Counted from the stretch's first letter, positions 23,796 through 55,163 are shown. The stretch: 57,370 nucleotides of DNA from Candidatus Moraniibacteriota bacterium (GCA_023133275.1 JAGLWU010000027.1:1-57370), one strand, 5' to 3'. Notes: generated from the sequence alone by a model not told the origin. Program-made: numbers and translations.

Positions 23796-23848
23796 TGTCA
23801 TTCTGAACGGATTTATTTTTTCGCTAAAAAAATAAAGGCGTGAAGAAT
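23796..23848 (-). repeat. Core repeat module, reverse orientation
   Basis: TGTCATTCTGAACG, AT hairpin TTTATTTTTTTAGCGAAAAAATAAA, then GTGAAGAAT. This is the reverse complement of the core found at 23903, 30867, 47065 and 55032. Confidence 0.7.
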
Positions 23849-23885
23849 TTTGATAAGTTTTTCTACTACTTTATTAATTTAAAAG

Positions 23886-24060
23886 TTTTATGATTTTCTG
23901 TAGGGGATTCTTCACTTCATAAATTTTTTTACAAAAAATTTATTACGTTCAGAATGACTGGTAATTTGAATGACAGGAGACTTTAATGACAATAAATGTT
24001 ACAGAGAATTTTTAGAATTTCGAAAAAGGTTAGATGGTGAAAAGCCTGTGCGGCGAGCAC
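23886..24060 (+). repeat. Composite intergenic repeat element, copy L1 (core module plus terminal 21-nt motif)
   Basis: Core GGGGATTCTTCAC, hairpin ATAAATTTTTTTACAAAAAATTTAT, CGTTCAGAATGACT (23903-23958). ATGACA sub-repeats. Ends GAAAAGCCTGTGCGGCGAGCAC at 24039-24060. Confidence 0.75.
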
Positions 24061-24103
24061 AATTTATTTTTTAAAGTTATAATTATTTTTTTAAATTAAA
24101 ATT

Positions 24104-24859
24104 ATGAGTAAAGATATTTCTGGACAAATAGTTGATAAAATTAAGAAAGAGAAAATTAGTTTGAGACCTCGAGTTTTTGATTATCGAAGTTTTCTTTTTT
24201 GGATAATTTTTGCTTTTTTAATTATTCTTGGCGGAATGTCTTTTTCACTGATTTTAATTTCGATTTTTAGTTTTGGTCGGGAAAATTTTCAATATGCTTC
24301 AGGTGGATTTTGGAAAATATTTTTAATGTCAATTCCTTATCTTTGGGTGATTTTTTTTGGTACTTTTGCTTATTTTGGACTGCGGGTTTTTCGTTCGACA
24401 AAGAGGGGTTATCGGCAAAATTTTTCGTTAATTTTATTGATTATATTTTTAGCGAGTTTTAGTTTTGGTTCCTTACTTCATATTTTTGGTTTTAGTAGGA
24501 GAATGCATCAATCTATGGTTGATCGAGTTCCTTTTTATCAAAACATAACTCCTACTATGGAAGGTCAATGGGCGAGACCAGATATGGGTATGTTGGGTGG
24601 TCAAATTATTAAAACTGGAAAAGATTTTATTGTTGTGCAAAATTTTCGGAGTAAAAAAATCACTGTGATTTATTCAAAGGAAAGTATTATTGGGGAAGAT
24701 GTTAAATTGGAAAAAGGTGAAAAAGTGCGAGTAGTGGGCAAAAGAGTTGATGAGGAGACTTTTGAAGCGAAAATTATTCAGTCTTGGGAGAATGATAGAT
24801 CTTTGTCGCCTCAAGATAAGGAGAAGATAATGAATTTAAGAAAAAAGAATATTAGATAA
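24104..24859 (+). CDS. Hypothetical polytopic membrane protein with a C-terminal soluble domain
   Basis: Four to five hydrophobic helices followed by a charged C-terminus. Lies downstream of the ECF sigma gene and could be an anti-sigma partner, but no signature supports that. Confidence 0.5.
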   Translation: MSKDISGQIVDKIKKEKISLRPRVFDYRSFLFWIIFAFLIILGGMSFSLILISIFSFGRENFQYASGGFWKIFLMSIPYLWVIFFGTFAYFGLRVFRSTKRGYRQNFSLILLIIFLASFSFGSLLHIFGFSRRMHQSMVDRVPFYQNITPTMEGQWARPDMGMLGGQIIKTGKDFIVVQNFRSKKITVIYSKESIIGEDVKLEKGEKVRVVGKRVDEETFEAKIIQSWENDRSLSPQDKEKIMNLRKKNIR

Positions 24860-25147
24860 GTTTTTTCAATAGAACTCTTCGGAAACTCCAATAAAATCTA
24901 TTAAGATTACCACATTCCACTTTACCATACTTGCAATGATAAGAACTTTTCTAAATATATTTTTTAATTTTCATAATTTCCGAAGAAGTCTAATATTACT
25001 AATTTGATAGTATTATTACACGTTCAATAAATTAAAATAATTAAATAAACTATCTTGTTTACAATCTATAATCAGAAGGGTATTTTAGACTTAGGAATTT
25101 TTCTATTGTATTTTGTGAAAGTTAAATTAAGTTTTAATTTTTTATAC

Positions 25148-25176
25148 TTGACTTTTTATTTGATATGGGGTATATT
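25148..25176 (+). promoter_or_regulatory. Putative promoter for the DEAD-box helicase gene, giving a ~90-nt 5' UTR
   Basis: TTGACT (25148-25153), 17-nt spacer, TATATT (25171-25176). Confidence 0.45.
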
Positions 25177-25270
25177 AAATGTTTGTTGATTGATGAACTT
25201 GAGTAATTATATTTTCTCTCTTTTCATCTTAGAACAAGAGTGTTAATTAATTACTAATAAATTCAATTTT

Positions 25271-26470
25271 ATGGCACGTGAAAAAAGAAATTACTATGGA
25301 AATAGTAAAGGTGGGGGCGGTAAGTTTAATAATAAAAGATCTAAAAGAAGACGTGGACCGAAGAAAGAGAATATTCATCCATCAAAGTTTATAAAGGTAG
25401 CTTGTATTAAAGAACAAGAGGAATATAAGCCGAAAAATACTTTTGAGGATTTTAAAATTCCTGATCTTATTCAAAAAAATATTACTAGACAAGGAATTGT
25501 AACTCCTTCTCCAATTCAAGATCAATCAATTCCGCAAGGAATGGCTGGCAATGATATTCTTGGTATTGCAAATACAGGAACAGGAAAAACTATGTCTTTT
25601 GCTCTTCCGGTACTTAAAAGATTATTGAAAGATAAAGATTCTAAAGTGATCATTATGGCACCGACAAGGGAGTTAGCACAGCAAATATTAGATGAGTTTA
25701 AAATGCTTACTCGAGGGGCAAAAGTATTTTGGGCATTACTGATTGGAGGAACTTCAATGCGTACACAACTTAAAGATCTTTCTAAAAAACCTCGTATCAT
25801 TATTGGTACTCCGGGGCGTATCCAAGATCACATTAAGAGAAAAAGTTTAAATTTAGCAACAGTTAATATGGTTGTTTTAGATGAGGTTGATAGGATGCTT
25901 GACATGGGATTTATTGATGATATGAAAAATATTTTGGGAAAACTCGCACAAGATAGACAATCATTTTTCTTTTCAGCAACAATGAATTCTAAAGTGCGTA
26001 ATTTAATAAATGAATTTTCAAAAGATCCAGTTACAATTTCAGTGAAAACAGGAAATACAAGTGATAATATTAATCAAGATGTTGTTAAGTATAGATCTCC
26101 TGATGATAAGTTTGATAAACTTCATAAATTGTTGACGGAAAATAAAAAGAACAAATTTTTGATTTTCGATGAAACGAAGAGAGGCGTTGATAAGTTGAAC
26201 AAGTCATTGCAAGAGCGAGGATTTCGTGTGGATGCGACTCATGGAGATAAAAGTCAAGGACAAAGAAAGCGGGTTCTTGCAAAATTTAAAGTTAATCAAA
26301 TAAGTGTTTTAGTAGCGACGGATGTGGCTGCTCGTGGGATTGATATTAAAGATATTACTCATGTGATTAATTATTCGACTCCGCAAAGTTATGATGATTA
26401 TGTTCATCGGATTGGTCGGACGGGTAGAGCTGGTCGTATAGGACATGCTTTTACTTTTATCAGGGGGTAG
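25271..26470 (+). CDS. DEAD-box ATP-dependent RNA helicase
   Basis: Q-motif GIVTPSPIQ, motif I ANTGTGKT, Ia PTRELA, II VLDEVD (DEVD variant), III SAT and VI HRIGRTGRAG. K/R-rich N-terminal extension. Confidence 0.9.
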   Translation: MAREKRNYYGNSKGGGGKFNNKRSKRRRGPKKENIHPSKFIKVACIKEQEEYKPKNTFEDFKIPDLIQKNITRQGIVTPSPIQDQSIPQGMAGNDILGIANTGTGKTMSFALPVLKRLLKDKDSKVIIMAPTRELAQQILDEFKMLTRGAKVFWALLIGGTSMRTQLKDLSKKPRIIIGTPGRIQDHIKRKSLNLATVNMVVLDEVDRMLDMGFIDDMKNILGKLAQDRQSFFFSATMNSKVRNLINEFSKDPVTISVKTGNTSDNINQDVVKYRSPDDKFDKLHKLLTENKKNKFLIFDETKRGVDKLNKSLQERGFRVDATHGDKSQGQRKRVLAKFKVNQISVLVATDVAARGIDIKDITHVINYSTPQSYDDYVHRIGRTGRAGRIGHAFTFIRG

Positions 26471-26496
26471 AAAAATCTTTTAAAAATTTGGTTATA

Positions 26497-26528
26497 AAAA
26501 ACAAGCTTTCGGGCTTGTTTTTTTGTTT
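26497..26528 (+). terminator. Rho-independent terminator after the helicase gene
   Basis: ACAAGC-TTTCGG-GCTTGT stem-loop followed by TTTTTTT. Confidence 0.6.
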
Positions 26529-26598
26529 AAGATTAAAAGTTGTCATTTTGGTTAGGGCAGAACTTACGGACAATGAAAATTTTTTGAAAAGAATTCTT

Positions 26599-26622
26599 GT
26601 GCTCGCCGCACGGGCTTTTTTG
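26599..26622 (-). repeat. 21-nt GC-rich intergenic motif, reverse orientation
   Basis: GTGCTCGCCGCACGGGCTTTTTT, the reverse complement of AAAAAAGCCCGTGCGGCGAGCAC. Confidence 0.8.
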
Positions 26623-26749
26623 GGTTTAAAATTTTAAATCACTATAAAATTTTTCCAATTTTCCAAATATATTATTCCTGAATATTTTTTTTGAGTCGTA
26701 TTGTAGAGTCGTTTTAGTAAAACAACTCTGCTTCCAAGATCTTAAATTT

Positions 26750-27685
26750 TTACAAAATAGACATCCAAAAAGGCAAAGTCAAAATTGACAATATTGTACT
26801 TAACACAATCGAATGAGCAATGAATTTTTTATTCAAATTATATTCATCTGCCAGAGCAAAAGGCGTGATAGCAAAAGGCATAGCTAATTCTATAATTGAA
26901 ATTGAAAAATTTGAAGGAGAAAAACCAAAAATTTTTAAACTGAAATAAAAAATAGCGGGTAATAATATCAAAGTTACGATGGAGAATAAAAATATAAAAA
27001 ACCATTCCGATAATTTTCCGAATTTTGATGACCCGATAAATATTCCTATCACCAATAAAACAATCGGAGTTACAGAAGTACTGATCATATTTAAAGGTTT
27101 ATTTAAAATTAGTGGAATTTCAATATTTAATATTCCAAAAATTATTCCAAAAATTATTGCAATAATGAGAGGTTTTTTAAAAAGGTTTATGAATAAATGT
27201 TTGATGATATGTCTTTCTCCATTACTATTATTTGCATAATCTAAGTAGCCGACGCCAACTGTGAATATCCAAAAAAAGTAAATTGCTATCAAGAGACTTA
27301 TTTGAGACAGTGTATTTTCTCCGTAAACTTGAGTGATGACTGGAATTCCGAGATAAGCAATATTTCCAAAAGTGAGACAAAAGAAAAGTGTTAAAAAAGT
27401 TTGTTTTGTAAACTTGAAAATTTTATTGAGTGCGATTATCATTATAAATCCAGTGAGTACAACTACGGAATTAGCTAGGATGAGTGGAAATTCTGCTTTG
27501 AAGGAAAATGATGTTTTTGCGAGGGCGGAAAAAAGTAAAATTGGTAATCCGATTTTAACGGCGAATTCATTTAAAACTTTTGACCAGTAATCATGGATGT
27601 AATTTAGTTTTCTTAAAATTGCACTGACGAAAATGATTATGAACAGTGGTGCGATGATATTTATTATTTGGATGATTTGAAACAT
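26750..27685 (-). CDS. Auxin-efflux-carrier (AEC) family membrane transporter
   Basis: About 10 TM helices in a two-repeat architecture. N-terminus MFQIIQIINIIAPLFIIIFVSAILRKL is typical of AEC/malate permease-like proteins. Confidence 0.6.
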   Translation of the reverse strand: MFQIIQIINIIAPLFIIIFVSAILRKLNYIHDYWSKVLNEFAVKIGLPILLFSALAKTSFSFKAEFPLILANSVVVLTGFIMIIALNKIFKFTKQTFLTLFFCLTFGNIAYLGIPVITQVYGENTLSQISLLIAIYFFWIFTVGVGYLDYANNSNGERHIIKHLFINLFKKPLIIAIIFGIIFGILNIEIPLILNKPLNMISTSVTPIVLLVIGIFIGSSKFGKLSEWFFIFLFSIVTLILLPAIFYFSLKIFGFSPSNFSISIIELAMPFAITPFALADEYNLNKKFIAHSIVLSTILSILTLPFWMSIL

Positions 27686-27755
27686 GATTTTTAGTTATTG
27701 AAATATTTATTATTTAAGTATATGATTTTTCTTTTTATTTGGCAATTTTATATTT

Positions 27756-27786
27756 GTAGAGAGATGTAGCAGTGCTACGTCTCTAC
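27756..27786. repeat. Imperfect 31-nt palindrome in the divergent promoter region
   Basis: GTAGAGAGATGTAGCAG|TGCTACGTCTCTAC, with 7-bp and 6-bp arms around a small bulge. Confidence 0.5.
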
Positions 27787-27906
27787 GGATAAAAATGAAA
27801 ACTTTTTGTTTTTCTTGCGTATTATTAGGTGAGACGAGGGAATTTGACAAAAGCTAGCATCAATTTTTCTCGAATCAAATTAAATAATAAATAATTAAAA
27901 AGAATT

Positions 27907-28413
27907 ATGAAAAAGTCAAAAATGATTGTTCCTGCTCTAGTTTTAGGAGTGGCAACGATAGTAGGTGTTTCTAGTTTTAATAATGTTAGTGCTAATGAGG
28001 AATCGCAATATTCTCCAATTATGCAAAAGGTTGCGGAGAAATTTAATCTTAATCAAGATGAGGTAAAACAGGTTTTTGATGAAAATCGTGAAGAGCGAAG
28101 AGCTGAAAATAAAGCTAAAGCTGATGAAAGACTTAGTAAATTAGTTAATGAAGGGAAATTAACTGAAGATCAAAAAAATGTTTTAATTGCGAAAAGAGAA
28201 GAGATAAGACAGGAAAGAGAAAATTCTTTTGGTGAAATGAAAGATCTTTCTCCTGAAGAACGAAAAGAAAAAAGACAAGAACATCAAGAAGAAATGAAAA
28301 AGTTCTTTGAAGAACAGGGAATTGATCATGATGCTTTGATGGGAGATGGTGGAATGAGAAATGATCAAAAACAAGGATCTGGTCGTGGACAGGGTGGCGG
28401 TGATCGGCGTTAA
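27907..28413 (+). CDS. Secreted charged protein with LTxxQ-like motifs (possible Spy/CpxP-like periplasmic protein)
   Basis: Signal peptide MKKSKMIVPALVLGVATIVGVSS. KLTEDQKNVLIAKREEI and NLNQDEVKQVF resemble LTXXQ repeats. Gly/Arg-rich C-terminal tail. Confidence 0.4.
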   Translation: MKKSKMIVPALVLGVATIVGVSSFNNVSANEESQYSPIMQKVAEKFNLNQDEVKQVFDENREERRAENKAKADERLSKLVNEGKLTEDQKNVLIAKREEIRQERENSFGEMKDLSPEERKEKRQEHQEEMKKFFEEQGIDHDALMGDGGMRNDQKQGSGRGQGGGDRR

Positions 28414-28443
28414 GAAAGGTTTTTTGAAAAATAGTTTGATAAT

Positions 28444-28478
28444 AAAACTCCAACTTTTATAGTTGGAGTTTTTGTTTT
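28444..28478 (+). terminator. Rho-independent terminator
   Basis: Perfect stem AAACTCCAACT / AGTTGGAGTTT followed by a T-run. Confidence 0.65.
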
Positions 28479-28489
28479 GTTGATTTTTG

Positions 28490-28518
28490 TGTAGGGGTTT
28501 GCCAGTGGCAAACCCCTA
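28490..28518. repeat. Perfect 29-nt GC-rich palindrome
   Basis: GTAGGGGTTTGCCA-G-TGGCAAACCCCTAC, with 14-bp perfect arms. Confidence 0.7.
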
Positions 28519-28640
28519 CGAATGTGGTGAATTTTTTTATAATTTTTTACTATTTGTAGGAACTGGTTTTATAATCTATTCCTGCGAGACATTTGGGTTT
28601 CACAGTTTTTTTTGGGGATTATGGAATTAATTTTGTGTTT

Positions 28641-28700
28641 AAAAAGCCCGTGCGGCGAGCCTGTCTGTTGTCTCGTCGACAGACACGGCAGACAGACACA
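28641..28700 (+). repeat. 21-nt motif copy followed by a GACAGAC-rich quasi-palindromic tract
   Basis: AAAAAGCCCGTGCGGCGAGC, then CTGTCTGTTGTCTCGTCGACAGACACGGCAGACAGACAC. Confidence 0.75.
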
Positions 28701-28767
28701 AAAATTCTTTTATGAATATTTTAATTTTGTGTTAGAATATAAATATAATTTTATAATAAAATAATTA

Positions 28768-29358
28768 ATGGATGGACAAGTGATAATTCAGTTTTTGACT
28801 GATTATGGGTATTGGATAATTTTGCCTTTGATGATTATTGAGGGTCCGATTGTTACTATTTTAGCGGCTTTTATGGCAAGTTTGGGGATTTTTGATATTA
28901 CTACAGTTTTACTACTTTCTATTGTTGGTGATGTTGTTGGTGATATTATGCTTTATGGTGTGGGTCGTATTTGGGGGATGACTTTTGTTAGGCGAGTTGG
29001 AAAATATATGGGGATTACGGAAAGTTTAGTTTTGAAAATGGAAAAGTTTTTTGAAAAGCATGGTGGGAAGACGATTTTTTCGGTTAAATCTACGACTGGT
29101 TTGTGTTGGGCGACTTGGGTAGCGGCTGGGATTGTGAAGATGAAATTTTGGCGATTTGTTTGGTATTCTTTTTTGGGTGGTGTTGTTTGGAGTGCTTTTT
29201 TAGTGGCGATGGGTTATTTTTTTGGTGAGTTTTATGAGCGGATTGTTGAGGGTATTAAGTTTGCGGGTTGGATTGTTTTTGGGATTGGTGTTTTGGTGAT
29301 TGTGGGGATGAATGTTTATAAGAAAGGAAAGAGTGAGGATTTGTTTGAAGAGAAATAA
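28768..29358 (+). CDS. DedA/VTT-domain family membrane protein
   Basis: DYGYWIILPLMIIEGPIVTILAAF… matches the DedA (E/G)xP amphipathic re-entrant motif. Four to five TM segments. Confidence 0.7.
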   Translation: MDGQVIIQFLTDYGYWIILPLMIIEGPIVTILAAFMASLGIFDITTVLLLSIVGDVVGDIMLYGVGRIWGMTFVRRVGKYMGITESLVLKMEKFFEKHGGKTIFSVKSTTGLCWATWVAAGIVKMKFWRFVWYSFLGGVVWSAFLVAMGYFFGEFYERIVEGIKFAGWIVFGIGVLVIVGMNVYKKGKSEDLFEEK

Positions 29359-29386
29359 TTAGTTTAAATAATTTTTAATTAAATAT

Positions 29387-30842: not shown

Positions 30843-30850
30843 TTTGAAGT

Positions 30851-31023
30851 TCTATGATTCTCTGTGGGGGGATTCTTCACTGCGTAATTTTGTTTCACAA
30901 AATTACTTCGTTCAGAATGACAGTAAACTTTGAATGACAGAAAATTCAGAATGATAATAAACTTTTAGAATTTTAAACAAGAGGTCATGACCCCTTGTTC
31001 AGAAAAGCCCGTGCGGCGAGCAC
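30851..31023 (+). repeat. Composite intergenic repeat element, copy L2
   Basis: Core at 30867-30922, in which the hairpin reads GTAATTTTG-TTTCA-CAAAATTAC. ATGACAG sub-repeats. Palindrome AACAAGAGGTCATGACCCCTTGTT (30976-30999). Motif GAAAAGCCCGTGCGGCGAGCAC (31002-31023). Confidence 0.75.
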
Positions 31024-45325: not shown

Positions 45326-45411
45326 AGAATTACAAAAACAAAAATAATTTTAAAAATTTAAATATTTTTTTTGTGTAATAAATTTATATAGAAAGGTAGG
45401 TGAAAATAATT

Positions 45412-45648
45412 ATGGCAGCACGCAAAAAAGTGGCTCGCAAAAAAACAACTCGTAAGAAGGTGGCTAAAAAGAAAGTAGCTAAGAAAAAAGCAGTACGTAA
45501 AACTACGCGTAAAAAAGTTGTTAAAAAAGCAAAGAAAAAAGTAGCGAGAAAGAAGACGGCTCGTAAAGCAACAAAAAAAACAGCACGTAAAAAGACGGCT
45601 AAAAGAAAAGTTGCAAAGAAAAAAGTGGTTCGTCGAAAAAGAAGATAG
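45412..45648 (+). CDS. Histone H1-like, highly basic repeat protein (nucleoid-associated candidate)
   Basis: 78 aa, more than 50% Lys/Arg, tandem KK(V/T)ARKKT(T/A)RKK repeats like Hc1/AlgP/BpH1 tails. RBS AGGTGA. The ORF track's GTG start at 45400 is less likely. Confidence 0.55.
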   Translation: MAARKKVARKKTTRKKVAKKKVAKKKAVRKTTRKKVVKKAKKKVARKKTARKATKKTARKKTAKRKVAKKKVVRRKRR

Positions 45649-45720: not shown

Positions 45721-46107
45721 ATGAAAATTATTTTGAATAGATGATTTGTTTATAGAATTGAAAAAGTTTTTTGAGAATTTTTAAATTTGTAGATATTGTT
45801 GAAAATTTTGTTAAAAAAACACAATCATTTAATGGGTAAAGTAGGTAGCTGTAATGTTAATAATATGAAGAAATTTTTACGAAAAATTGATTTGCCGATT
45901 TATTTTTTTGAATAGGTTTTATTGAGATAAGGTTTTTCTGTTGGAATTTATTGGGAAAAGTGGTAATTATTTTAATGCTTGTAAAAAAATATTTCCATCC
46001 AGCTGATATTTAATTAAAATTTTAAACAAATTATTTTCTTTTTTTATAAAAAACAAAATAATTTTTTAGAGTTGACGCCCAATTTAATTGGGTGATGATA
46101 TGAGTTG

Positions 46108-46155
46108 AACAAGGGGTCATGACCCCTTGTTCAAAAAAGCCCGTGTGGCGAGCAC
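46108..46155 (+). repeat. 24-nt perfect palindrome plus 21-nt motif
   Basis: AACAAGGGGTCATGACCCCTTGTT (46108-46131) immediately followed by CAAAAAAGCCCGTGTGGCGAGCAC (46132-46155). Confidence 0.8.
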
Positions 46156-46255
46156 AAAATTAGTTTAAAAATAAGTCAAAAAAATTCTTAAAATTTTACA
46201 ACAAACTTGCATTATGTTATAATAAAATGGAAGTTAAAAATAAATATAAAACTTT

Positions 46256-46567
46256 ATGGAATGTCAAAATAATGAAAAATCAACGATCATTAGCACTTTG
46301 TCTGAGATGGTTGGATCAATGTTAAAGGTTGTGCAGACAGGTATTGTAGAGCGAATAGAAAAAGTTGCTAGTCGTATTGTTCGGGATGTGGTGGGAGTAA
46401 TTATTTTTGCTTTACTGGGCTTGGTGGGATTCACTTTTTTTCTGGTTGGAGCGTCAATTTGGTTGGGTGATTTTTCAGGATTAGGATTAGGATTTGGGTT
46501 AATGTCGACAGGTGGAGTAGTTTTTATTCTTGCTTTATTGATAGGGTTAATTCAAAGAATTAAATAA
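46256..46567 (+). CDS. Hypothetical small membrane protein (2 TM)
   Basis: Two Gly-rich hydrophobic helices. Lies 26 bp upstream of the ElaB-like gene. Confidence 0.4.
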   Translation: MECQNNEKSTIISTLSEMVGSMLKVVQTGIVERIEKVASRIVRDVVGVIIFALLGLVGFTFFLVGASIWLGDFSGLGLGFGLMSTGGVVFILALLIGLIQRIK

Positions 46568-46593
46568 AATTTTAATTAAATTAATATAAAAAT

Positions 46594-46872
46594 ATGGGAA
46601 ATAAATGTGATAATGAAGAAGGCATGAAAAAGCATTATTGTAATGCTAGGGAAAAAGCTGAAGAAATTAAAGAGATAACTTCTGAAAAGATGGAAAAAGT
46701 AAAAGAAATGACTTCTGAAAAAGTTGAGGATGTTAAAGAGAAAGCTCAAGAAGTGAGAGAAAATACTCAAGATTATATCAAAAAAAATCCTGAAAAATCT
46801 GTTAGTATTGCGGCTGGAGTTGGTGCGGCTGTTGGTGTTGCTTTTGCGTTTTTGTTTAGGCGTAGGAAATAG
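46594..46872 (+). CDS. ElaB/YqjD/DUF883-family tail-anchored protein
   Basis: Charged coiled-coil N-terminus. C-terminus NPEKSVSIAAGVGAAVGVAFAFLFRRRK matches the DUF883 C-terminal anchor (ENPW.SVGIAAGVG…LL.RR). Confidence 0.5.
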   Translation: MGNKCDNEEGMKKHYCNAREKAEEIKEITSEKMEKVKEMTSEKVEDVKEKAQEVRENTQDYIKKNPEKSVSIAAGVGAAVGVAFAFLFRRRK

Positions 46873-46896
46873 ATTGAACTTGAATTTTATAAAATG

Positions 46897-46928
46897 AAAC
46901 CTTTGCTTTTGTGGAGGTTTTTTTTATT
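46897..46928 (+). terminator. Putative terminator
   Basis: AAACCT…AGGTTT stem followed by TTTTTTT. Confidence 0.45.
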
Positions 46929-47046
46929 GCTTTTAAATTATTTTAAGATTCATTTTTTGTAGATTTTTTTATATTTCTTGCATGTTGTAGTGCAAGGTCT
47001 TTACATTGAAAAATAAAATAATTTTTTTAGGAGGATAAGATTGGGA

Positions 47047-47284
47047 GTTTTATATTTTTCTTTGGGGGATTCTTCGCTACATAAATTTTTTTACAAAAAA
47101 TTTATTACGTTCAGAATGACAGATAAACTTTTGTAGTGAACGGTTTCAAACCGTTCACTACTGAAATTACCACGTTATCTTTGGGTTGAAAATTTTCAAC
47201 CCCTACATTGCAATAACAGTAATTTTTTAGAATTTCAACAAGGGGTCATGACTCCTTGTTCAGAAAAGCCCGTGCGGCGAGCAC
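47047..47284 (+). repeat. Composite intergenic repeat element, copy L3 (most elaborate: core, three perfect palindromes, terminal motif)
   Basis: Core 47065-47121 with hairpin ATAAATTTTTTTACAAAAAATTTAT. Palindromes TAGTGAACGGTTTCAAACCGTTCACTA (47134-47160), GGGTTGAAAATTTTCAACCC (47183-47202) and AACAAGGGGTCATGACTCCTTGTT (47237-47260). Motif at 47261-47284. Confidence 0.8.
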
Positions 47285-47378
47285 AATTATTTTTTTGATA
47301 CTTTTTAATATCTTTGAGAAATGATATAGTGGATGTAGTGAACTTAAAATGTGTTTTTTTAAATTTTAAAATAAAATT

Positions 47379-48116
47379 ATGATAAATCTTGAAAATAAAA
47401 AAGTAATTATTACGGGGGCAGCTGCGGGGATTGGTCGGGCTACGGCGGTGAAATGTGTTGAACATGGGGCGGATGTTTTGGTGATTGATATTAATGAGAA
47501 TGGTTTAGTTAAATTGCAAAAAGAACTTGGCGAAGATAAAGTTAAGATTTTTAATTTTGATATTTCTGATTTGGGTAAAATTAAGGATTTTTTTGTGCAA
47601 CTTAGAAAGGATGATATTAAAATTGATTGTTTGGTGAATAATGCGGGCATTTATTTGGGTAAATCTGTTTTGGATTATTCTGATGAGGATATTGCGAAAG
47701 TTATGGCGATAAATTTGATAGCACCAATTTATTTTTCTAAGGAATTTGCTCGGGATAAAATGAATGGTAAAAAGCAGGGCGTAATTGTAAATATTGCTTC
47801 TGTTTCGGGTGAAGCAGGAACTTCGGAGTCAGTTTATGGTGCAACTAAAGGTGGTCTCCTTGGTTTGACAAAAAGTAATGCGATTGATTTTTCTCCGTAT
47901 GTTCGGGTGAATGCGGTGGCTCCAAGTGTTACTAAAACTGCTTTGGTGAAAAATATTCCAGAAGAGCGGTTGAAAATGCACGAAAAACATAATTTGATTA
48001 AGGAATGGATTGAGCCTGAGGATATTGGGAATGCGGTTTTGTTTTTGTTGTCGGATGTTTCGGGGCATTGTACGGGGATGACTTTGGATGTTAATAATGG
48101 GCGTTATTTGAGGTAG
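47379..48116 (+). CDS. Short-chain dehydrogenase/reductase (FabG-like)
   Basis: TGAAAGIGRATA Rossmann motif, NNAG, and the S…YGATKGG catalytic Ser/Tyr/Lys. Confidence 0.8.
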   Translation: MINLENKKVIITGAAAGIGRATAVKCVEHGADVLVIDINENGLVKLQKELGEDKVKIFNFDISDLGKIKDFFVQLRKDDIKIDCLVNNAGIYLGKSVLDYSDEDIAKVMAINLIAPIYFSKEFARDKMNGKKQGVIVNIASVSGEAGTSESVYGATKGGLLGLTKSNAIDFSPYVRVNAVAPSVTKTALVKNIPEERLKMHEKHNLIKEWIEPEDIGNAVLFLLSDVSGHCTGMTLDVNNGRYLR

Positions 48117-49318: not shown

Positions 49319-49399
49319 TTAAATCTCGTGTTGCCTTTACAAAAAAACATGCGTATAATAAAAAGAGAATTAAAAACAATACAATAAAACATCACAATT

Positions 49400-50554
49400 A
49401 TGAAAATCGGAATAAATGCAAGTTTTTTACGCAAGCCAGCCACGGGAATCGGACAAGTAACCACACATTTCCTAAACGAATTAATCAAACAAATAAGAGA
49501 AAACAAAAAACACAAAAACCATAAATTCGTACTTTATTTAGAGGAAGATATAGAATTAGATTTACCAAAAAACTTTCAAAAAAAAGTATTTCTACCAGCG
49601 TACAAGCGAGACGATTTATTTCGAAAAATCTGGTGGGAAAAATTTAGCTTACCTTGTCAGGCACATAAGGATGGATGCGATATTCTGTTCAGTCTCTATC
49701 AATCTGCGACAGTCATAAAATATGTTTGCATGAAACACATTGTTTTAGTTCACGATATCATTCCAAAAATATTTCCAGAATACCTAAATAATTTTCGCAA
49801 AAAAATTTACCAATCGCAAATTGAAAAAGGTATTTACGGGGCACATGTAATTTTAACTGTTTCGAAATATACAAAAAAAGATTTGATTGAAAAAATGAAT
49901 GTTAATCCAGCAAAAATTATTACAAATTATATTTCTGTAGATCCTTTATATTCAAAAGAAATTGTTCAAAGTGAATCGGAGCGAGTGATGAAAAAGTATA
50001 ATTTAAAATCAGATTATATTTATTCTGGCGGAGGTTTGGAAGTTAGAAAAAATACAGATGGAACTTTGCGAGCTTATAAAAAATTAGTTGATCGTAATTC
50101 CAATGTTCCGACTTTAGTTATTTCAGGAAAATTAATGCCACAACTTGTACCGTTAGTTATTGACGTTGAAAAAATTGTGAAAGAATTGGAATTGGAAGAT
50201 AAAGTTAAAATTATTGGTTATATAGAGCAGAGAGATTTGCCTGCACTTTATAAAAATGCCTTGATGTTTGTTTATCCGTCGCATTATGAAGGTTTTGGAA
50301 TGCCTGTGCTTGAAGCGATGCAAATTGGAGCTCCAACTATAACAGCAGATAATTCTAGTTTGCCAGAAGTTGGGGGCGAGGCAGTTTTATATTCTGATGA
50401 TGAATCTGATGAAGATTTGGTGAGTAAAATGGAAGAATTATTAGAAAATGAAGAATTACGAAATGATTTGGTTATTAAGGCTAAGAAAAAATCTGAGGAA
50501 TTTTCTTGGGAAAAGTTTGTTGATGGGTTTTTTGAGATTGTGGATAAAAATTAG
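49400..50554 (+). CDS. Family 4 glycosyltransferase (GT-B, GT4)
   Basis: C-terminal EX7E motif SHYEGFGMPVLEAMQIGAPTITADNSSLPEVGGEA. Confidence 0.8.
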   Translation: MKIGINASFLRKPATGIGQVTTHFLNELIKQIRENKKHKNHKFVLYLEEDIELDLPKNFQKKVFLPAYKRDDLFRKIWWEKFSLPCQAHKDGCDILFSLYQSATVIKYVCMKHIVLVHDIIPKIFPEYLNNFRKKIYQSQIEKGIYGAHVILTVSKYTKKDLIEKMNVNPAKIITNYISVDPLYSKEIVQSESERVMKKYNLKSDYIYSGGGLEVRKNTDGTLRAYKKLVDRNSNVPTLVISGKLMPQLVPLVIDVEKIVKELELEDKVKIIGYIEQRDLPALYKNALMFVYPSHYEGFGMPVLEAMQIGAPTITADNSSLPEVGGEAVLYSDDESDEDLVSKMEELLENEELRNDLVIKAKKKSEEFSWEKFVDGFFEIVDKN

Positions 50555-50643
50555 TTATTAAATTTTAATTATTAGAAATAAAAAAAGGACTTTCCGAAGA
50601 AAATTCTGTAAAAGTGTCAGATTCAGTTGAATCTGTTTAAGGT

Positions 50644-50808
50644 TTAAGTAAGAAATGTAATTAATAAAAAAATAATAATTGCGACAAGTGATGATGTTTT
50701 TTTATGCCCCCATAAAAGAACAAGTATTAAGAACAGATTTTCTTTAAAGAGAATGAAAAGAAAAAATAATAGAATAAACACAATTAATATCGTAGTTTTT
50801 TTAATCAT
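50644..50808 (-). CDS. Unannotated small hydrophobic protein (54 aa)
   Basis: Minus-strand ATG with a GAGGTG RBS 6 nt upstream. Sequence MIKKTTILIVFILLFFLFILFKENLFLILVLLWGHKKTSSLVAIIIFLLITFLT, two predicted TM helices. Not in the ORF track (under 60 aa). Confidence 0.3.
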   Translation of the reverse strand: MIKKTTILIVFILLFFLFILFKENLFLILVLLWGHKKTSSLVAIIIFLLITFLT

Positions 50809-50890
50809 CAGTACACCTCACTTTATTTTTGTTGAAGAGTTTTATGTTTAAAAAAAAGTACTATGTGTAATTTATCAAATTATTATAAAT

Positions 50891-52540
50891 ATGTTAAAGT
50901 TAACTAAAAATAAAATATTAATTATATCAAACGTTGTAATTATTTTAACTTTAATTATTTTTTCAAATTTAGGATTTTTACCTTTGGAAAATTTTTTAAT
51001 TTTTGGATTTTTTTCAGTTGCAATTTTTATTTTTGCTTGGTGGCGATTGCGTTTATTTTTTTTGTTTTTTGTTGGAATTATTATTTTAGAAAATATTAAT
51101 CTCGTCCCAGCAGAATTGGGTGTAAATATTCGACCGTATCAACTTTTAGGTGGGATTATATTTTTGGTTTTTCTAGTAAAATTAGTTTTAAATAAATTAA
51201 ATTTCAAATTACCAAAATTTTGTTGGAAAGACGGTTTAATTTTAACTTTTATTCTTGCGGGCTTTTTAAGTACAATTTTTTCTGAAAATCAAATTGTGTC
51301 CTTGAAACAGTCTATAATTATTACATCTTTTGGATTATTATATTTTTTATTCAAAGTTTTTATACAAAATTTTCAAGATTTAAAAAAAGTTATTCCATTT
51401 TTTTTAAGCTCCTCGTTTGTTGTAGTGATTTACGGAATTTGGCAGAATTGGCAATTTATGCGAGGCAGTTCTCATTTTGAAATAATGGCAGGACGTCCAA
51501 ATACAACTTTTTCTGAACCAGATTGGTTGGGTATGTTTTTAGTTTTTCTGGTAGCTAGTTTATACATTTTAATTTTTAAAAAATATTATTCAATAAAAAA
51601 TATTTTCAAAAAAGGAGATTGTTTATTTTGGTTTTACTATTCTTTTTTAGTTTTGACCTTCATATTATTAATTTTGACAGTAGCTCGAAGCGCTTGGTTA
51701 GGTGTAGGAATGGTTACGATAATTTATTTATTTTTAATTTTACTTGAAAGTTTAAGTGTTTGGTTAGAATTAAAAAAAGGTTTTCGTTTTCGTATTCGCA
51801 AAAATAATTTTTTTAAAAAGATATTTAAAAATTTAAATTGGAAAAGTTTTTTTTCACAGAGTTTCATAATTTTTTCAACAGGAATTATTTCAATTAGTTT
51901 AGTTTTTTTTCTAAATTTAACTAACTTTGAATTGGGAAATAGGATTCAAAGTACGGGAAGTGGAAAACAGGAAATTACGATTTCTTGTGTTTTAATGTTT
52001 GACATGGAACAAAATAATTTTTTAAACTCTTCAATAAGAGAAATTGAAAATATCAGCGAACTAAAAAAATATAATTGTCGACATATTAATTTGGAGGAAA
52101 TTGAAAGTGAAGAATTAAAAGGAAATTTGGTAACTAAAATTTATCGGAGTGATCCAAATGTAAATGTTCGGGCGGAAGTTTATCGAAAATCTTGGCGAGA
52201 AATTAAGGGAAATTGGATTTTGGGAATTGGTTGGGGAAATATTGGGAGTGTTTTGGGAATGGATGATAGTGATACGGTTTTGAATTCGAGTAATATTTTT
52301 CTGGAAGTTTGGTTGGGAGCTGGGATTTTGGGAATTATTTCTTTTATGATTTTAATTTTTAGTATTTTTTGGCAAGGCATTATTAATTTTATTAGCAAAG
52401 AGGATATTGAAAAAAAATTGTTTGGGATGTTTTTGATTTTGGGAGTGGTGGCGATTTTGATTCCGAATTTGTTTAATGCGGGGATTATGCTAGGATTTTT
52501 ATGGTTGTTTTTTGGAGTAAGTGAAATGGATGATTTTTAG
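50891..52540 (+). CDS. O-antigen ligase/polymerase-like (Wzy_C-type) polytopic membrane protein
   Basis: At least 10 TM helices. A periplasmic loop with TVARSAWLGV resembles the O-antigen ligase domain. Adjacent to the GT4 gene. Confidence 0.45.
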   Translation: MLKLTKNKILIISNVVIILTLIIFSNLGFLPLENFLIFGFFSVAIFIFAWWRLRLFFLFFVGIIILENINLVPAELGVNIRPYQLLGGIIFLVFLVKLVLNKLNFKLPKFCWKDGLILTFILAGFLSTIFSENQIVSLKQSIIITSFGLLYFLFKVFIQNFQDLKKVIPFFLSSSFVVVIYGIWQNWQFMRGSSHFEIMAGRPNTTFSEPDWLGMFLVFLVASLYILIFKKYYSIKNIFKKGDCLFWFYYSFLVLTFILLILTVARSAWLGVGMVTIIYLFLILLESLSVWLELKKGFRFRIRKNNFFKKIFKNLNWKSFFSQSFIIFSTGIISISLVFFLNLTNFELGNRIQSTGSGKQEITISCVLMFDMEQNNFLNSSIREIENISELKKYNCRHINLEEIESEELKGNLVTKIYRSDPNVNVRAEVYRKSWREIKGNWILGIGWGNIGSVLGMDDSDTVLNSSNIFLEVWLGAGILGIISFMILIFSIFWQGIINFISKEDIEKKLFGMFLILGVVAILIPNLFNAGIMLGFLWLFFGVSEMDDF

Positions 52541-52560
52541 TGAAAATTAAAAAATTATGT

Positions 52561-52589
52561 TTGACTTCTTCTTCTTCTTCTGATACGAT
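52561..52589 (+). promoter_or_regulatory. Putative promoter whose 17-nt spacer is a (TTC)5 trinucleotide repeat
   Basis: TTGACT (52561-52566), spacer TCTTCTTCTTCTTCTGA, TACGAT (52584-52589). About 70 nt upstream of the 52659 gene. Confidence 0.35.
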
Positions 52590-52658
52590 GAAAAGTTAAC
52601 GAAATTATTCGTTCGACATGTTTTTTTATCTACAATTATATATCAGGAGATAATTCTA

Positions 52659-53078
52659 ATGGAAGCTACTCAATTTGTTGTTTCTAGTACCTTTAAAAGA
52701 GGTGGTTTCTTAGGTTTTTTTTGCGACGTTTATTATTGCGAAGCTCGGATAATAAAAAGCGAGCCTATTTATAAAAAATTTTTTGGAGAAAAAGTAGGAG
52801 GTGGTGCTGTACAAAGAAAAGTAAATTTAGAGATAATAAGTGTCATTTGGAGTGCTTCGCGTCAGAACTCTCAGGAACTCAGTTTTTATGTTCCTGTTGA
52901 AGATTGTAATGCTGAAAGAATGTTTGAATCTGTCCAATTAGTGATTGAGCAGTTAAATCAAAAAAAAGAAAATTTACTTAGATCAATGCCTGATGCAAAT
53001 TGTAATGATCTAAGTAATTTAATTATATTTCTTTCTGGAATTAAATTACAAGATATTTTTGTAACACCAGTTACTTAG
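52659..53078 (+). CDS. Hypothetical protein (139 aa)
   Basis: AGGAGA RBS 7 nt upstream. No recognisable motif. Confidence 0.45.
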   Translation: MEATQFVVSSTFKRGGFLGFFCDVYYCEARIIKSEPIYKKFFGEKVGGGAVQRKVNLEIISVIWSASRQNSQELSFYVPVEDCNAERMFESVQLVIEQLNQKKENLLRSMPDANCNDLSNLIIFLSGIKLQDIFVTPVT

Positions 53079-53089
53079 AGGAAATAAAT

Positions 53090-53140
53090 AAAGGTCGTTT
53101 CGCAATCTGTACGCGGGATGACCTTTTGAACTTTTTTATT
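53090..53140 (+). terminator. Putative terminator
   Basis: AAAGGTC…GACCTTT 7-bp stem with a 23-nt loop, followed by TGAACTTTTTT. Confidence 0.4.
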
Positions 53141-53195
53141 TTCTAAGTTTTTAAAAGTGCTATAATAAAATTAGTCTTTATTAAAAAAAACAACT

Positions 53196-54320
53196 ATGAA
53201 CAAGAAATATCTATTTATCATTTTTGGAATAATTACAATCTTTTCATTAAGTGGTTTTTTCGTGTATTCATTTGTTAATGAAAAAAATACAGAAGAACTT
53301 ATTACGTTTGATGAAACAAAAATAGAAGACGAAAATAAATTAACACAAAATGATTTACAAAATTACAACGAAAATATTATTACATCAGCAAATCAAAAAA
53401 ATATTCAAACTGAAATTTCTAATAATTCCGAAGATGAAAATTCTTTACCAATTCTTGACAGCAATAAAAAAACTGAAGAGTTAAAAGACAAAGAATTAAA
53501 TTTAGTGAAAAAAGTCGAAGAAATAAAAACTTACAAATCTTTTAATTTTGTTGTAATAGCCGATTCAGAAAGTTACAAAGCAGCTAGCGGTCATGAAGAA
53601 AAATTTGAAAGTATGTTAGCAAAAACAGTTTCGTACAAACCAGACTTTGTGATTTTTTCGGGTGATTTAATTACGCAGGGCAGTCCAGACAGAACTAAGG
53701 TTGCAAATTTGAAAAAACTAATTAGAAAATATTATAGTAAATTTTACATTACATTTGGCAAGCATGATATTGAATGTGGGGTTCAGTGTGTAGATATTTG
53801 GGAAGATGTATTTTTTAATAAAAAACATGTGGCGGGTGAAAAACGTAAACTTTATTATTCCTTTGATTATGAAAATACGCATTTTGTTTTGTTGTCATCA
53901 GATTATCCCATTAAGCATTCTGTGGATGATGTTCAATTGAAATGGCTAAATGATGATCTTAAAAAAAATGACAAATCGAATATAATCGTTGTGGTACATG
54001 TTCCATCAGTTACTTTTTTCAAAGAGTCAGCGAAGGAGTGTCATGATATGTCTTGCAACGAGACGCAAAGAGTTAAATTGATTAATTTTCTTAAAAAGCA
54101 TAAAGTCGATTTAGTAATTTCTGGGCATGAACACGTTTTTGATCATAAGATTGTTGATGGGATTGATTTTGTGATTGCGGGTGGTGTGGGAAAAAGTAAA
54201 CGGTATAAAGATTCAATGTGGAAGGATAGTTTTTTGCAGATTACTGTTTCTGGAAATAGAATTATTTTGAAGTCTTTTGGAATTGAAGGAGAATTGATTC
54301 GGGAGATAAAGATTAAGTAG
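53196..54320 (+). CDS. Membrane-anchored calcineurin-like metallophosphoesterase
   Basis: N-terminal TM. Metallophosphatase motifs VVIADSE, SGDLITQG, GKHD, VVVHVP and SGHEHVFDH. Confidence 0.6.
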   Translation: MNKKYLFIIFGIITIFSLSGFFVYSFVNEKNTEELITFDETKIEDENKLTQNDLQNYNENIITSANQKNIQTEISNNSEDENSLPILDSNKKTEELKDKELNLVKKVEEIKTYKSFNFVVIADSESYKAASGHEEKFESMLAKTVSYKPDFVIFSGDLITQGSPDRTKVANLKKLIRKYYSKFYITFGKHDIECGVQCVDIWEDVFFNKKHVAGEKRKLYYSFDYENTHFVLLSSDYPIKHSVDDVQLKWLNDDLKKNDKSNIIVVVHVPSVTFFKESAKECHDMSCNETQRVKLINFLKKHKVDLVISGHEHVFDHKIVDGIDFVIAGGVGKSKRYKDSMWKDSFLQITVSGNRIILKSFGIEGELIREIKIK

Positions 54321-54329
54321 GAAATAATC

Positions 54330-54965
54330 ATGAATAAAAAAACTATAATTTTTGATTTTGATGGAACGATTGCGGATACTTTGGATGTTGTTGTGAATAT
54401 TTATAATAAACTTGCTCCTAAATATTTTTGTAAAACTTTAAAAAGAGAGGATGTGGAAATTTTGCGAAATAAAAAATCTCAAGAATTTATGAAAGATTAT
54501 GGAATTTCTAAATTTAAATTACCTTTTTTAGTTTTACATATTAGAAAATATTTGAATGGTGAAATGAAAAATGTTAAACCGATTGATGGAATAATTGAAA
54601 CGTTGAAAGAACTTAAAAATCTTGGTTATAATTTGGGAATCATGACGTCTAATTCAAAAAAGAATGTTGAGAATTTTTTAAAGATAAATAATTTAGATGA
54701 CATTTTTGATTTTGTCTATTCGAGCAAAAATCTTTTTGGAAAAGATAAAGTGATTAAAAAAATTATTAATAAATATTTTTTTGAAAAAGATTTAATTATT
54801 TATGTTGGTGATGAGGTGCGTGATGTTGAGATGTCAAAAAAATTGGGAATTTCTGTTTTAGCGGTTAGTTGGGGTTTTAATTCTAGGGAAATGCTTGAAA
54901 ATGCTGGAGCGGATGTGATTGTGGATAATTCGAGAGAATTGTTAGAGTGTTTGCAAAAATTTTAA
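54330..54965 (+). CDS. HAD-superfamily hydrolase (phosphoglycolate-phosphatase-like)
   Basis: Motif I IIFDFDGTIADT, motif II MTSN, and motif IV GDEVRD. Confidence 0.65.
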   Translation: MNKKTIIFDFDGTIADTLDVVVNIYNKLAPKYFCKTLKREDVEILRNKKSQEFMKDYGISKFKLPFLVLHIRKYLNGEMKNVKPIDGIIETLKELKNLGYNLGIMTSNSKKNVENFLKINNLDDIFDFVYSSKNLFGKDKVIKKIINKYFFEKDLIIYVGDEVRDVEMSKKLGISVLAVSWGFNSREMLENAGADVIVDNSRELLECLQKF

Positions 54966-55011
54966 TTTTTCTACAAAAAATGAAAGGATTTTTCAGGATA
55001 ATATGATTTGA

Positions 55012-55163
55012 TAGTTTTATGATTTTCTGTGGGGGATTCTTTACTTCATAAAATTTTTCTAACGAAAATTTTATTACGTTCAGAATGACAATAAACTGGG
55101 ATAACAAAAATTTTTTAAAATTTCAAAAAATGTTAAATGGTGAAAAGCCCGTGCGGCGAGTAC
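55012..55163 (+). repeat. Composite intergenic repeat element, copy L4
   Basis: Core 55032-55090 with hairpin ATAAAATTTT-TCTAACG-AAAATTTTAT. Ends GAAAAGCCCGTGCGGCGAGTAC (55142-55163). Confidence 0.75.

Follow-up and report, generated by a model that had tools for sequence, protein, structure and literature searches.

The stretch of DNA analysed here (the window; 57,370 nt of Candidatus Moraniibacteriota bacterium, GCA_023133275.1 JAGLWU010000027.1:1-57370) contains five copies of a structured module, all of them intergenic. The genes downstream of the copies are unrelated (an unannotated 251-aa ORF, a 116-aa ORF, SDR and LepA), and four of the five copies are co-oriented with the flanking genes, 60–330 nt upstream of start codons. 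One tRNA is predicted in the window by ARAGORN. The copies, their weaker relatives and the repeats that surround them are given below; scores come from a covariance model of 14 copies of the Moranbacteria type, and "tag strand" denotes the strand opposite to that on which the module was originally described.

23796..23852, - strand: core hairpin copy 5 (66.7 bits), inverted pair with copy 1; tag-strand layout (here the + strand) TGTCATTCTGAACG-GA-TTTATTTTTT..AAAAAATAAA-GGC-GTGAAGAAT
23903..23959, + strand: core hairpin copy 1, GGGGATTCTTCAC-TTC-ATAAATTTTTT/AAAAAATTTAT-TAC-GTTCAGAATGACT (78.9 bits); tag strand is the - strand, tag AGTC
30868..30922, + strand: core hairpin copy 2, apical stem GTAATTTTG/CAAAATTAC (73.1 bits)
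47065..47121, + strand: core hairpin copy 3, apical stem as in copy 1 (78.1 bits)
55032..55090, + strand: core hairpin copy 4, apical stem ATAAAATTTT/AAAATTTTAT (75.7 bits)
17631..17688, - strand: possible decayed sixth copy, weak (15.7 bits, E 0.56); + strand reads TGTCATTACGG...CTGGAATCCA
17727..17795, - strand: related TGTC-tagged hairpin of a fully paired kind, TGTC-ATCCTGAA-(AT stem)-TTCAGGGT-CTC on the - strand
46027-46077 and 54954-55004: degenerate relatives of the 17727..17795 hairpin
23884..23901, + strand: lineage-specific conserved flank AGTTTTATGATTTTCTGT, further at 30848-30865, 47046-47063 and 55013-55030
23965..23993, + strand: two extra half-sites, (T)GAATGACA and TAATGACA, about 16 nt apart
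30929..30958, + strand: two extra half-sites, GAATGACA and GAATGATA, about 17 nt apart
47126-47146/47148-47168, + strand: arms of palindrome 1, copy 3 only, 86% complementary over 21 nt
47183-47202, + strand: palindrome 2, copy 3 only, perfect, 20 nt, GGGTTGAAAATTTTCAACCC
47237..47260, + strand: 24-nt palindrome AACAAGGGGTCATGACYCCTTGTT, one mismatch, further at 30976-30999 and 46108-46131
47266..47284, + strand: D-box AAGCCCGTGCGGCGAGCAC, a separate, independent repeat at the end of the mosaic in copies 1–4 (24042, 31005, 47266, 55145)
10474, 19743, 26599 (-), 28644, 43541 and 46137: D-box alone

The five copies had been reported in an initial annotation of this DNA and proved to be real by box searches as well as by the covariance model, with one position amended (30868 instead of 30867). 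Allowing up to two mismatches, GGGGATTCTTCAC matches at 23903, 30868, 47065 and 55032, all on the + strand, and CGTTCAGAATGACA matches at 23946, 30909, 47108 and 55077 (+) and at 23796 (-); these box counts were attained in none of 100 shuffles. The left arm is weaker in the - strand copy (AAAATTCTTCAC). The covariance-model search recovered exactly the five copies (66.7–78.9 bits) and one doubtful match, that at 17631-17688. The four hairpin sequences originally quoted were correct as read, copies 1 and 3 having an identical stem. A fifth two-mismatch match to GGGGATTCTTCAC, absent from the original list, lies at 6479-6491 (-), reads GGGGATTATTCAG and is without a partner box.

On the tag strand the unit reads TGTC-ATTCT-GA-AC-(GNA or insert)-GT-GA-AGAAT-CC(C/A). 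What had been described as the conserved flanks of the module are the two arms of one hairpin, whose loop is extended apically by the variable hairpin at the centre. The basal part begins with the pairs ATTCT/AGAAT (5 bp), followed by a conserved mismatch, tandem G·A/A·G, and 2 bp (AC/GT); the stem ATTCTGAAC / GTGAAGAAT has nine positions, seven Watson-Crick and two G·A, and starts A-T, T-A. In this Moranbacteria lineage a 3x3 GNA/GNA internal loop, topped by an AT-rich apical stem of 9–11 bp, takes the place of the GNA triloop, and the window copies carry a 29–33-nt insert in place of the loop. The tag is TGTC in four copies and AGTC in copy 1, while the tail is CCCC(A/T/C) in the four + strand copies and TTTT in copy 5; since tag and tail are unpaired, the hairpin has polarity. 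All five copies are predicted to fold into the same rod-like hairpin, the tag strand being more stable in nine of ten comparisons, and in copy 3 the left arm is TTCGC, so that a G·T pair forms on the + strand or an A·C mismatch on the - strand. The most telling structural features (tandem G·A, GNA loop and TGTC tag) are carried by the strand that is antisense to the genes of the window. Readings as a hammerhead-like fold (CUGA..GAA) or as a k-turn were dropped, as neither a CUGANGA core nor a bulge is present.

Compensatory change in the apical stem is genuine. Both sides have changed in 7 of 10 apical pairs, 97.5% of cells are paired against 84.7% in shuffles and 36–54% in slid controls, and the covariation score is 0.308 versus 0.083 (reached in 0 of 500 shuffles). 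The initial annotation was right to hold that the folded structure is kept by compensatory change. Across the five copies the basal arms hardly vary, and they match those of distant phyla, while the differing apical stems are still 95.7% paired, a combination that points to recent activity or constraint.

The hairpin sits in intergenic mosaics of 140–240 nt together with independent repeats (tag stubs, palindromes and D-box), an arrangement that resembles BIMEs. The flank AGTTTTATGATTTTCTGT is common to the window and Moraniibacteriota HOU_bin.0114. ATGACA sub-repeats had been said to follow each core; they do so at copies 1 and 2, whereas copies 3 and 4 have only the ATGACA internal to the core. 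Likewise, three further perfect palindromes had been attributed to copy 3, of which the 20-nt one is indeed perfect but the first is only partly complementary and the third has a mismatch. This third, 24-nt palindrome stands directly upstream of the D-box at all its sites. The D-box was considered as a -35 element and rejected because it stands at different distances from a conserved -10-like box in the window and in a related locus (L257).

The hairpin core is common across phyla, with flanks that are lineage-specific. The exact pattern GGATTCTTYRC-N20-45-GTTCAGAATGAC occurs at more than 118 loci at the least, in many phyla including Acidobacteria, Nitrospinota, Bacteroidota, Chloroflexi, Clostridia, Planctomycetes and several CPR groups. 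As this set was gathered with a fixed pattern, basal-stem covariation cannot show in it; the evidence for such covariation is confined to hairpins beside ssn-like genes, with the pairs ATCCC/GGGAT, ATCCT/AGGAT, ACCCT/AGGGT and ATTCA/TGAAT. Units were recovered from the listed pattern loci with a generic hairpin pattern, and among the matches listed 78 compact units have a 3-nt TNC loop (GNA on the tag strand), the tags are TGTC (110), AGTC (35) and CGTC (20) and the tails CCA (69), CCC (56) and CTC (29). Gene orientation across phyla is neutral (34 same versus 34 opposite, with a crude ORF caller). The inverted dimer formed by copies 5 and 1 has a counterpart of the same arrangement in another locus (L041).

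Among relatives with 79–90% identical LepA (about 84 kb) there are no intact copies and one decayed copy. These relatives afforded one usable orthologous comparison, upstream of the SDR gene, in which L257 keeps the D-box and lacks the hairpin module; orthologous loci of the hairpin sites were sought in the CPR loci and none was found. In a metagenome scan with GGATTCTTYRCTNCRTAAW about 118 of 120 matches were due to chance, in coding DNA, the real ones being L162 and L202. A scan of viral contigs gave only five matches, so the element is not phage-enriched. Literature searched by literal sequence returned nothing beyond chance primer matches.

A partner for the repeat is suggested by its neighbors elsewhere. 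The hairpin family occurs on both sides of 11 out of 11 Ssn-like genes examined, all from other phyla (four loci found through the repeat, two plasmids, and five of five homologs picked from the protein side), and a strict hairpin pattern matches 40 times near these genes against 0.05 in shuffles. They encode GIY-YIG proteins of 94–115 aa (PF01541, E 2e-14 and 3e-17 in the two scanned). The basal sequence of the window copies, TGTCATTCTGAACG..GTGAAGAATC, is found exactly in two of the ssn-like loci, L031 and L253. The L031 protein is 44% identical to Neisseria SsnA (N. gonorrhoeae ORF; E 8e-17) and therefore falls within the SsnA family as delimited by Chenal et al. 2025 (E below 1e-10 to Neisseria SsnA; PMC11893778). 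The N. gonorrhoeae ssnA ORF has at least seven canonical NTS around it, and its score with the Ssn subfamily HMM is 107.5 bits; protein homologs number at least 7,999. SsnA is specific for ssDNA, which it binds and cuts on a single strand, upstream of the NTS, and is inactive on RNA and dsDNA (PMC11893778).

No Ssn-like gene was found in the 57 kb of the window, the adjoining 10 kb upstream or 40 kb of a mosaic-bearing related genome, so Ssn is a putative partner in this organism; L246 and the CPR loci examined are likewise without an ssn-like gene. The 81-aa GIY-YIG gene of L257 was set aside as a candidate partner enzyme, as its score with the Ssn subfamily HMM is only 45 bits and it has no flanking hairpins; its product presumably resembles UPF0213/YhbQ proteins.

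The module is most unlikely to be a new RNA gene; it is probably a short palindromic DNA repeat of a type that typically flanks Ssn-family nuclease genes. As a DNA hairpin of REP type it would belong to the CGTC/TGTC-tagged superfamily, which includes Neisseria dRS3/NTS and Ssn-related motifs. With NTS/SRM and Ssn (PMC11893778) it shares the 5' (C/T)GTC tag, the ATTC...GAAT arms, the CC-type tail, the polarity conferred by unpaired flanks, the multicopy intergenic occurrence and, in other phyla, the flanking of a gene for a single-domain GIY-YIG nuclease of about 95 aa, an SsnA homologue. It differs in the tandem G·A mismatch, the GNA triloop, the 9–11-bp AT stem in the loop and the window's lack of an ssn gene. 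The published SRM pattern, HGTCWYN(0-2)YYVSBRHN(0-5)WNVSBRGN(0-2)RNCYNB (PMC11893778), has no match in the window; it fits canonical NTS, while the compact forms and the window copies both fall outside it. As described in the 2013 survey by Di Nocera et al., CGTC REPs, including Neisseria dRS3 and Rickettsia RPE-4/6, have the tag CGTC or TGTC (or CCTC), a stem starting AT and mostly a CCA tail (PMC3733652). The similarity with them comprises the tag, the CCA-like tail, a stem of 8–9 positions starting A-T, T-A, inverted dimers and no associated transposase, whereas their loops are given as 4–5 nt and those found here are of 3 nt or a long insert. GTAG REPs, REPINs and BIMEs are also short palindromes outside genes that carry an unpaired tetranucleotide tag; they occur in dimers and mosaics and are thought to act as ssDNA hairpins that a small nuclease of their own recognises, but their tag and enzyme class are different (HUH Y1 versus GIY-YIG) and no RAYT was found here. 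The subterminal hairpins of IS200/IS605 and PATE resemble the module in ssDNA hairpin recognition, cleavage beside the foot and the lack of TIR/TSD; unlike them, it has no TnpA/TnpB and no distinct left and right ends.

The tag strand would fold once single-stranded, for instance during replication or DNA uptake, and might then be bound by a small single-domain GIY-YIG Ssn nuclease, as homology suggests. The enzyme may nick ssDNA a few nt 5' of the tag, to judge from the action of Neisseria SsnA on NTS in vitro. Together with its flanking hairpins, an ssn gene would behave as a cassette, passing from phylum to phylum and leaving scattered hairpin copies behind. The apical stem would be free to evolve as long as it stays paired, which would produce the compensatory pattern. 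It is conceivable, albeit doubtful, that the rebuilt Moranbacteria hairpin (3x3 GNA/GNA loop, covarying AT stem and D-box mosaic) acts without a canonical Ssn, for example by being read by a different ssDNA-binding protein in the DNA uptake or replication of DNA-scavenging organisms, and that the tandem-G·A TGTC hairpin is the commonest class of Ssn partner, missed by the published pattern.

Other explanations have to be weighed against a REP-type DNA hairpin. The copies could be orphan, decaying remnants without present function, their pairing being due to palindrome dynamics at the DNA level such as template switching; the failure to see an ssn gene in the window and the neighboring and related DNA examined, the decayed copies at 17631-17688 and in L257 and the ease with which AT-rich palindromes arise agree with this, but near-invariant basal arms matched in distant phyla and apical stems that differ and still pair make it unlikely.

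A structured non-coding or cis-regulatory RNA, in which the hairpin would act in a transcript (as leader, stabiliser or small RNA), was the favored proposal of the initial annotation, which suggested an undescribed family. It would account for the compensatory change and for the co-orientation of four copies with the genes behind them, and REPs of other bacteria are known to affect mRNA stability (PMC3733652). Against it, the flanks are REP-type arms, the structural signatures are antisense, the copies precede genes unrelated to one another, neither gene orientation prevails across phyla, no intact copy exists in close relatives and the associated protein family cuts ssDNA and not RNA. Moreover, Rfam 15 at gathering thresholds gave no match in the window and 18 loci except one tRNA (in L010), and at E up to 1 only a chance-level match (E 0.52) in 46000-47400. 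The proposal of a new RNA family is not supported, and an RNA as the primary identity is quite improbable; an RNA-level side role is possible, since the four co-oriented copies would be transcribed.

Mobilisation as a REP/REPIN by a RAYT (an IS200/IS605-like Y1 HUH transposase) would be consistent with a short intergenic palindrome, with inverted dimers here and in L041 and with the BIME-like setting. It is nevertheless very unlikely, given that the tag is TGTC and not GTAG, that the hairpin-flanked gene is a GIY-YIG nuclease and that Di Nocera et al. describe CGTC repeats as having no transposase association (PMC3733652); tblastn with approximate IS200/IS608 TnpA queries, a weak test, gave no Y1 transposase match with an E value below 2, either in the window or in 125 loci.

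Protein-binding sites or a MITE-like repeat had rightly been listed as live options, but an ordinary MITE that stems from an insertion sequence of the DDE-transposase kind and contains the hairpin internally, although suggested by the multicopy, intergenic, patchy occurrence and modular length (140–240 nt), deserves scarcely any credence, as neither terminal inverted repeats nor the target-site duplications that were to be looked for appear at the conserved boundaries in an alignment of four mosaics and a relative, the hairpin, 24-nt palindrome and D-box each occur independently, and a cross-phylum core is set in lineage-specific flanks.

What looked like a new RNA is thus probably a member of a repeat class whose partner enzyme was identified only in 2025. 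The class of tagged hairpins extends to the Candidate Phyla Radiation and to further phyla outside the survey of 2013, which covers five phyla without CPR, Acidobacteria, Nitrospinota or Clostridia (PMC3733652). A structural subtype with tandem G·A and a GNA loop is added that lies outside the published motif, and the loop tolerates long covarying stem extensions. Pairs of hairpin and enzyme can now be tested with a view to the ssDNA tools that have been proposed on the basis of Ssn. Covariation of the R-scape kind is by itself insufficient to tell RNA genes from ssDNA hairpin repeats. Read on the tag strand, the half-sites at 23965..23993 are tag-plus-arm stubs, TGTCATT(C/A), that recur on the upstream side of the hairpin, and similar stub arrays adjoin ssn-like genes in Planktothrix and in L254.

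The five-copy feature of the window is real and structured, and is best explained as an Ssn-type, TGTC-tagged REP hairpin that has a covarying apical stem specific to its lineage and forms part of a BIME-like mosaic. Both conserved boxes lie where the initial annotation placed them: GGGGATTCTTCAC occurs at 23903, 30868, 47065 and 55032 (+ strand), a count that 0 of 100 shuffles reach, and the second box, CGTTCAGAATGACA, occurs 30–32 nt downstream of each GGGGATTCTTCAC and also at 23796 (- strand), a count equalled in 0 of 100 shuffles. All five copies are intergenic, and their AT-rich stems had been read correctly.

A covariance model trained on 14 Moranbacteria-type copies, the same alignment that served for the covariation test, recovers exactly these five copies from the window (66.7–78.9 bits) together with one doubtful match at 17631–17688. 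The earlier claim of covariation is correct because, in the 14-copy alignment, the bases of the proposed structure pair at 97.5% (84.7% in shuffles), both sides change in seven of ten apical pairs, a covariation score as high as the observed 0.308 (versus 0.083) occurs in 0 of 500 shuffles, and pairing falls to 36–54% when the partner columns are slid as a control.

The conserved "flanks" are complementary to one another: ATTCT pairs with AGAAT, a 2x2 mismatch follows, and AC then pairs with GT. All five copies are predicted to adopt a common rod fold in which a 5-bp stem leads through a 2x2 internal loop to 2 bp, and these through a 3x3 internal loop to a 9–11-bp AT stem. On the strand starting with TGTC (the tag strand), the unit reads TGTC-ATTCT-GA-AC-GNA-GT-GA-AGAAT-CC(A/C); it contains a GNA triloop, and its tandem G·A/A·G mismatch has the context Y-GA-R. 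Both motifs are known to be stable when single strands fold, and predicted stability is greater for the tag strand in 9 of 10 comparisons.

Searching one genome per species for exact matches to GGATTCTTYRC-N20-45-GTTCAGAATGAC retrieves at least 118 loci, and the matches listed include Acidobacteria, Nitrospinota, Bacteroidota, Chloroflexi, Clostridia, Planctomycetes, Paceibacterota, Gottesmanbacteria, Saccharibacteria and Moraniibacteriota. Among these listed matches many genomes carry the compact unit GGATTCTTCAC-TNC-GTTCAGAATGAC, at times in tandem arrays, and others carry hairpins in place of the three-base loop, with a composition that tracks the host genome. TNC is kept on both sides of the insert in 48 of 119 extended units among the matches listed; in most of those 48 the apical stem opens with a G-C pair, and stem sequences are highly diverse. 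In Acidobacteria (L016, L023, L030 and other loci) the universal core lies inside long conserved flanks of its own, ccagagggtgatgg...tct-[core]-tc..cacaaataactacac, and in Bacteroidota/Chitinophagaceae (L010, L015, L018, L026) it likewise lies within the phylum's own longer flanks; mosaics of this lineage-specific kind are thus the general pattern and not a peculiarity of the window.

The CGTC-tagged REP superfamily, which includes Neisseria dRS3, is defined by a CGTC or TGTC tag, an 8–9 bp stem beginning with AT, a CCA tail and inverted dimers, and has no transposase association (Di Nocera et al., 2013; PMC3733652). The dRS3 element was extended to NTS (CGTCATTCCCGCGMAVGCGGGAATCYRG) and "Ssn-related motifs" (SRM), hairpins that typically border ssn genes; SsnA, a 94-aa single-domain GIY-YIG protein, recognises NTS and cleaves on its upstream side, binding and cutting only ssDNA, on one strand, and acting on neither RNA nor dsDNA (Chenal et al., 2025; PMC11893778).

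In four of the loci retrieved through the repeat, from Kapaibacteriales, Nitrospina, Acidobacteria and a planctomycete, local tblastn identifies small GIY-YIG ORFs adjoining the hairpin; the four proteins share 48–58% identity, each ORF has hairpins on both sides, and both proteins scanned match Pfam PF01541 (E 2e-14 and 3e-17). The Nitrospina protein is 44% identical (E 8e-17) to an ORF of a Neisseria gonorrhoeae chromosome record filed among plasmids, identified as ssnA because at least seven canonical NTS surround it. It also matches plasmids of Sinorhizobium, Novosphingobium and Azospirillum, all hosts of CGTC REPs in the 2013 survey (PMC3733652). TGTCATTCTGAGTGAAACGAAGAATCTC and TGTCATCCCGAGGAACGAGGGATC border two plasmid genes, one from Planktothrix (72% identical) and one from Spirosoma, and have the same hairpin architecture with compensating outer pairs. 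From the protein side, a profile search with a cut-off of E 1e-10 yields at least 7,999 proteins. The hairpin family stands on both sides of all five homologs picked solely by extent of surrounding DNA, with 13 exact copies within 3.3 kb at one of them. Under a strict pattern, 40 hairpins occur near 11 Ssn-like genes versus 0.05 in shuffles, and at two loci with such genes (L031 and L253) the basal arms are identical to the window's. The Planktothrix agardhii plasmid locus (NZ_LR882964.1, 18147–19822) has its ssn-like gene and hairpin arrays between a type IIL MmeI restriction-modification gene and DISARM drmA, and this gene thus sits inside a defence island.

For the window's own genome we can only infer a partner Ssn enzyme, since an Ssn-like gene is absent from the window, from 10 kb upstream and from the CPR loci compared, the one GIY-YIG gene that a relative carries matches the Ssn subfamily weakly and has no flanking hairpins, and the published SRM pattern fails to match the window's hairpin family.

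A single-stranded DNA role of the hairpin is favoured because of this enzyme association and because, in the cross-phylum loci among the matches listed, its orientation to neighbouring genes is neutral (34 sense, 34 antisense; crude ORF caller), Rfam gives no match for the element in the window and other loci searched, in the window the G·A mismatch, GNA motif and tag all lie on the strand antisense to genes, and the genes downstream of its copies are mutually unrelated. With the same ORF caller and loci, 23 settings are convergent and 14 divergent. The + strand copies are likely transcribed and may exert a secondary RNA effect; the undescribed structured RNA family first proposed is not borne out, given the balanced orientation, the Rfam result, the antisense motifs and the ssDNA-nuclease association. 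Nor does the element behave as a classical MITE, as the alignment of four mosaics has sharp conserved boundaries (AGTTTTATGA... to ...GCGAGCAC) and neither inverted termini nor target duplications.

The window belongs to a Candidatus Moranbacteria MAG. No intact hairpin copy occurs in about 84 kb from four relatives whose LepA is 79–90% identical, and one of them, the Moranbacteria relative L257, has a decayed one. The orthologous region upstream of its SDR gene keeps a palindrome, the D-box (a short repeat closing the mosaic) and a promoter-like box and lacks the hairpin core and extra palindromes; it follows that the core was gained or expanded in a lineage-specific manner and that the D-box predates it and does not depend on it. 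The accessory repeats of the window are as follows.

10474, 19743, 24042, 28644, 31005, 43541, 46137, 47266, 55145 and 26599 (-): D-box AAAAG(C/T)CCGTGCGGCGAGCAC, 10 intergenic copies
30976–30999, 46108–46131, 47237–47260: 24-nt palindrome AACAAGGGGTCATGACCCCTTGTT, always directly upstream of a D-box
17727–17795 (- strand): second TGTC-tagged hairpin, TGTC-ATCCTGAA-[AT stem]-TTCAGGGT-CTC, without G·A
46027–46077, 54954–55004: degenerate copies of this second family

Nine of the ten D-boxes lie on the gene strand, and the lone - strand copy follows a - strand gene. The D-box, whose sequence can fold on either strand into a small hairpin resembling a terminator, between A and T runs, is also present in HOU_bin.0114, and three more distantly related Moranbacteria loci lack it; at the position of the 24-nt palindrome L257 holds a different one, ACTAGCCATTGGCTAGT. 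A D-box variant ending in GAGCCTG and followed by a hairpin (GCCTGTCTG...CAGACAGGC-like), at 28644–28700 and in loci L041 (5788, -) and L108 (3511, -), looks as if a hairpin had been inserted within the D-box. Three perfect extra palindromes had been described in copy 47065; the 20-nt one is perfect and the other two are imperfect. ATGACA sub-repeats, said to follow each core, are found as extras after two cores only; they are tag-plus-arm stubs, and comparable arrays of stubs adjoin the ssn-like genes of Planktothrix and L254. Palindromes beginning with GTAG or ending in CTAC (28478–28510, 47132–47160, 47183–47206; e.g., GTAGGGGTTTGCCAGTGGCAAACCCCTAC, GGGTTGAAAATTTTCAACCC-CTAC) recall GTAG-type REPs, but no RAYT gene is seen in the window.

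Elsewhere in the window, three 102-bp tandem repeats (9921–10278) within a 369-aa ORF (9357–10466) are probably coding TPR units, since the counterpart in the related genome L246 has TPR Pfam matches. Nearly all 2-kb bins show a strongly positive GC skew (about +0.2 to +0.5), long ORFs are almost all on the + strand, and the single tRNA is Ala-GGC (15579–15652). An 82-aa ORF (45400–45648) consisting almost entirely of Lys, Arg, Ala and Thr repeats (KKVARKKTTRKK...) would, by composition, resemble a histone H1-like or nucleoid protein.
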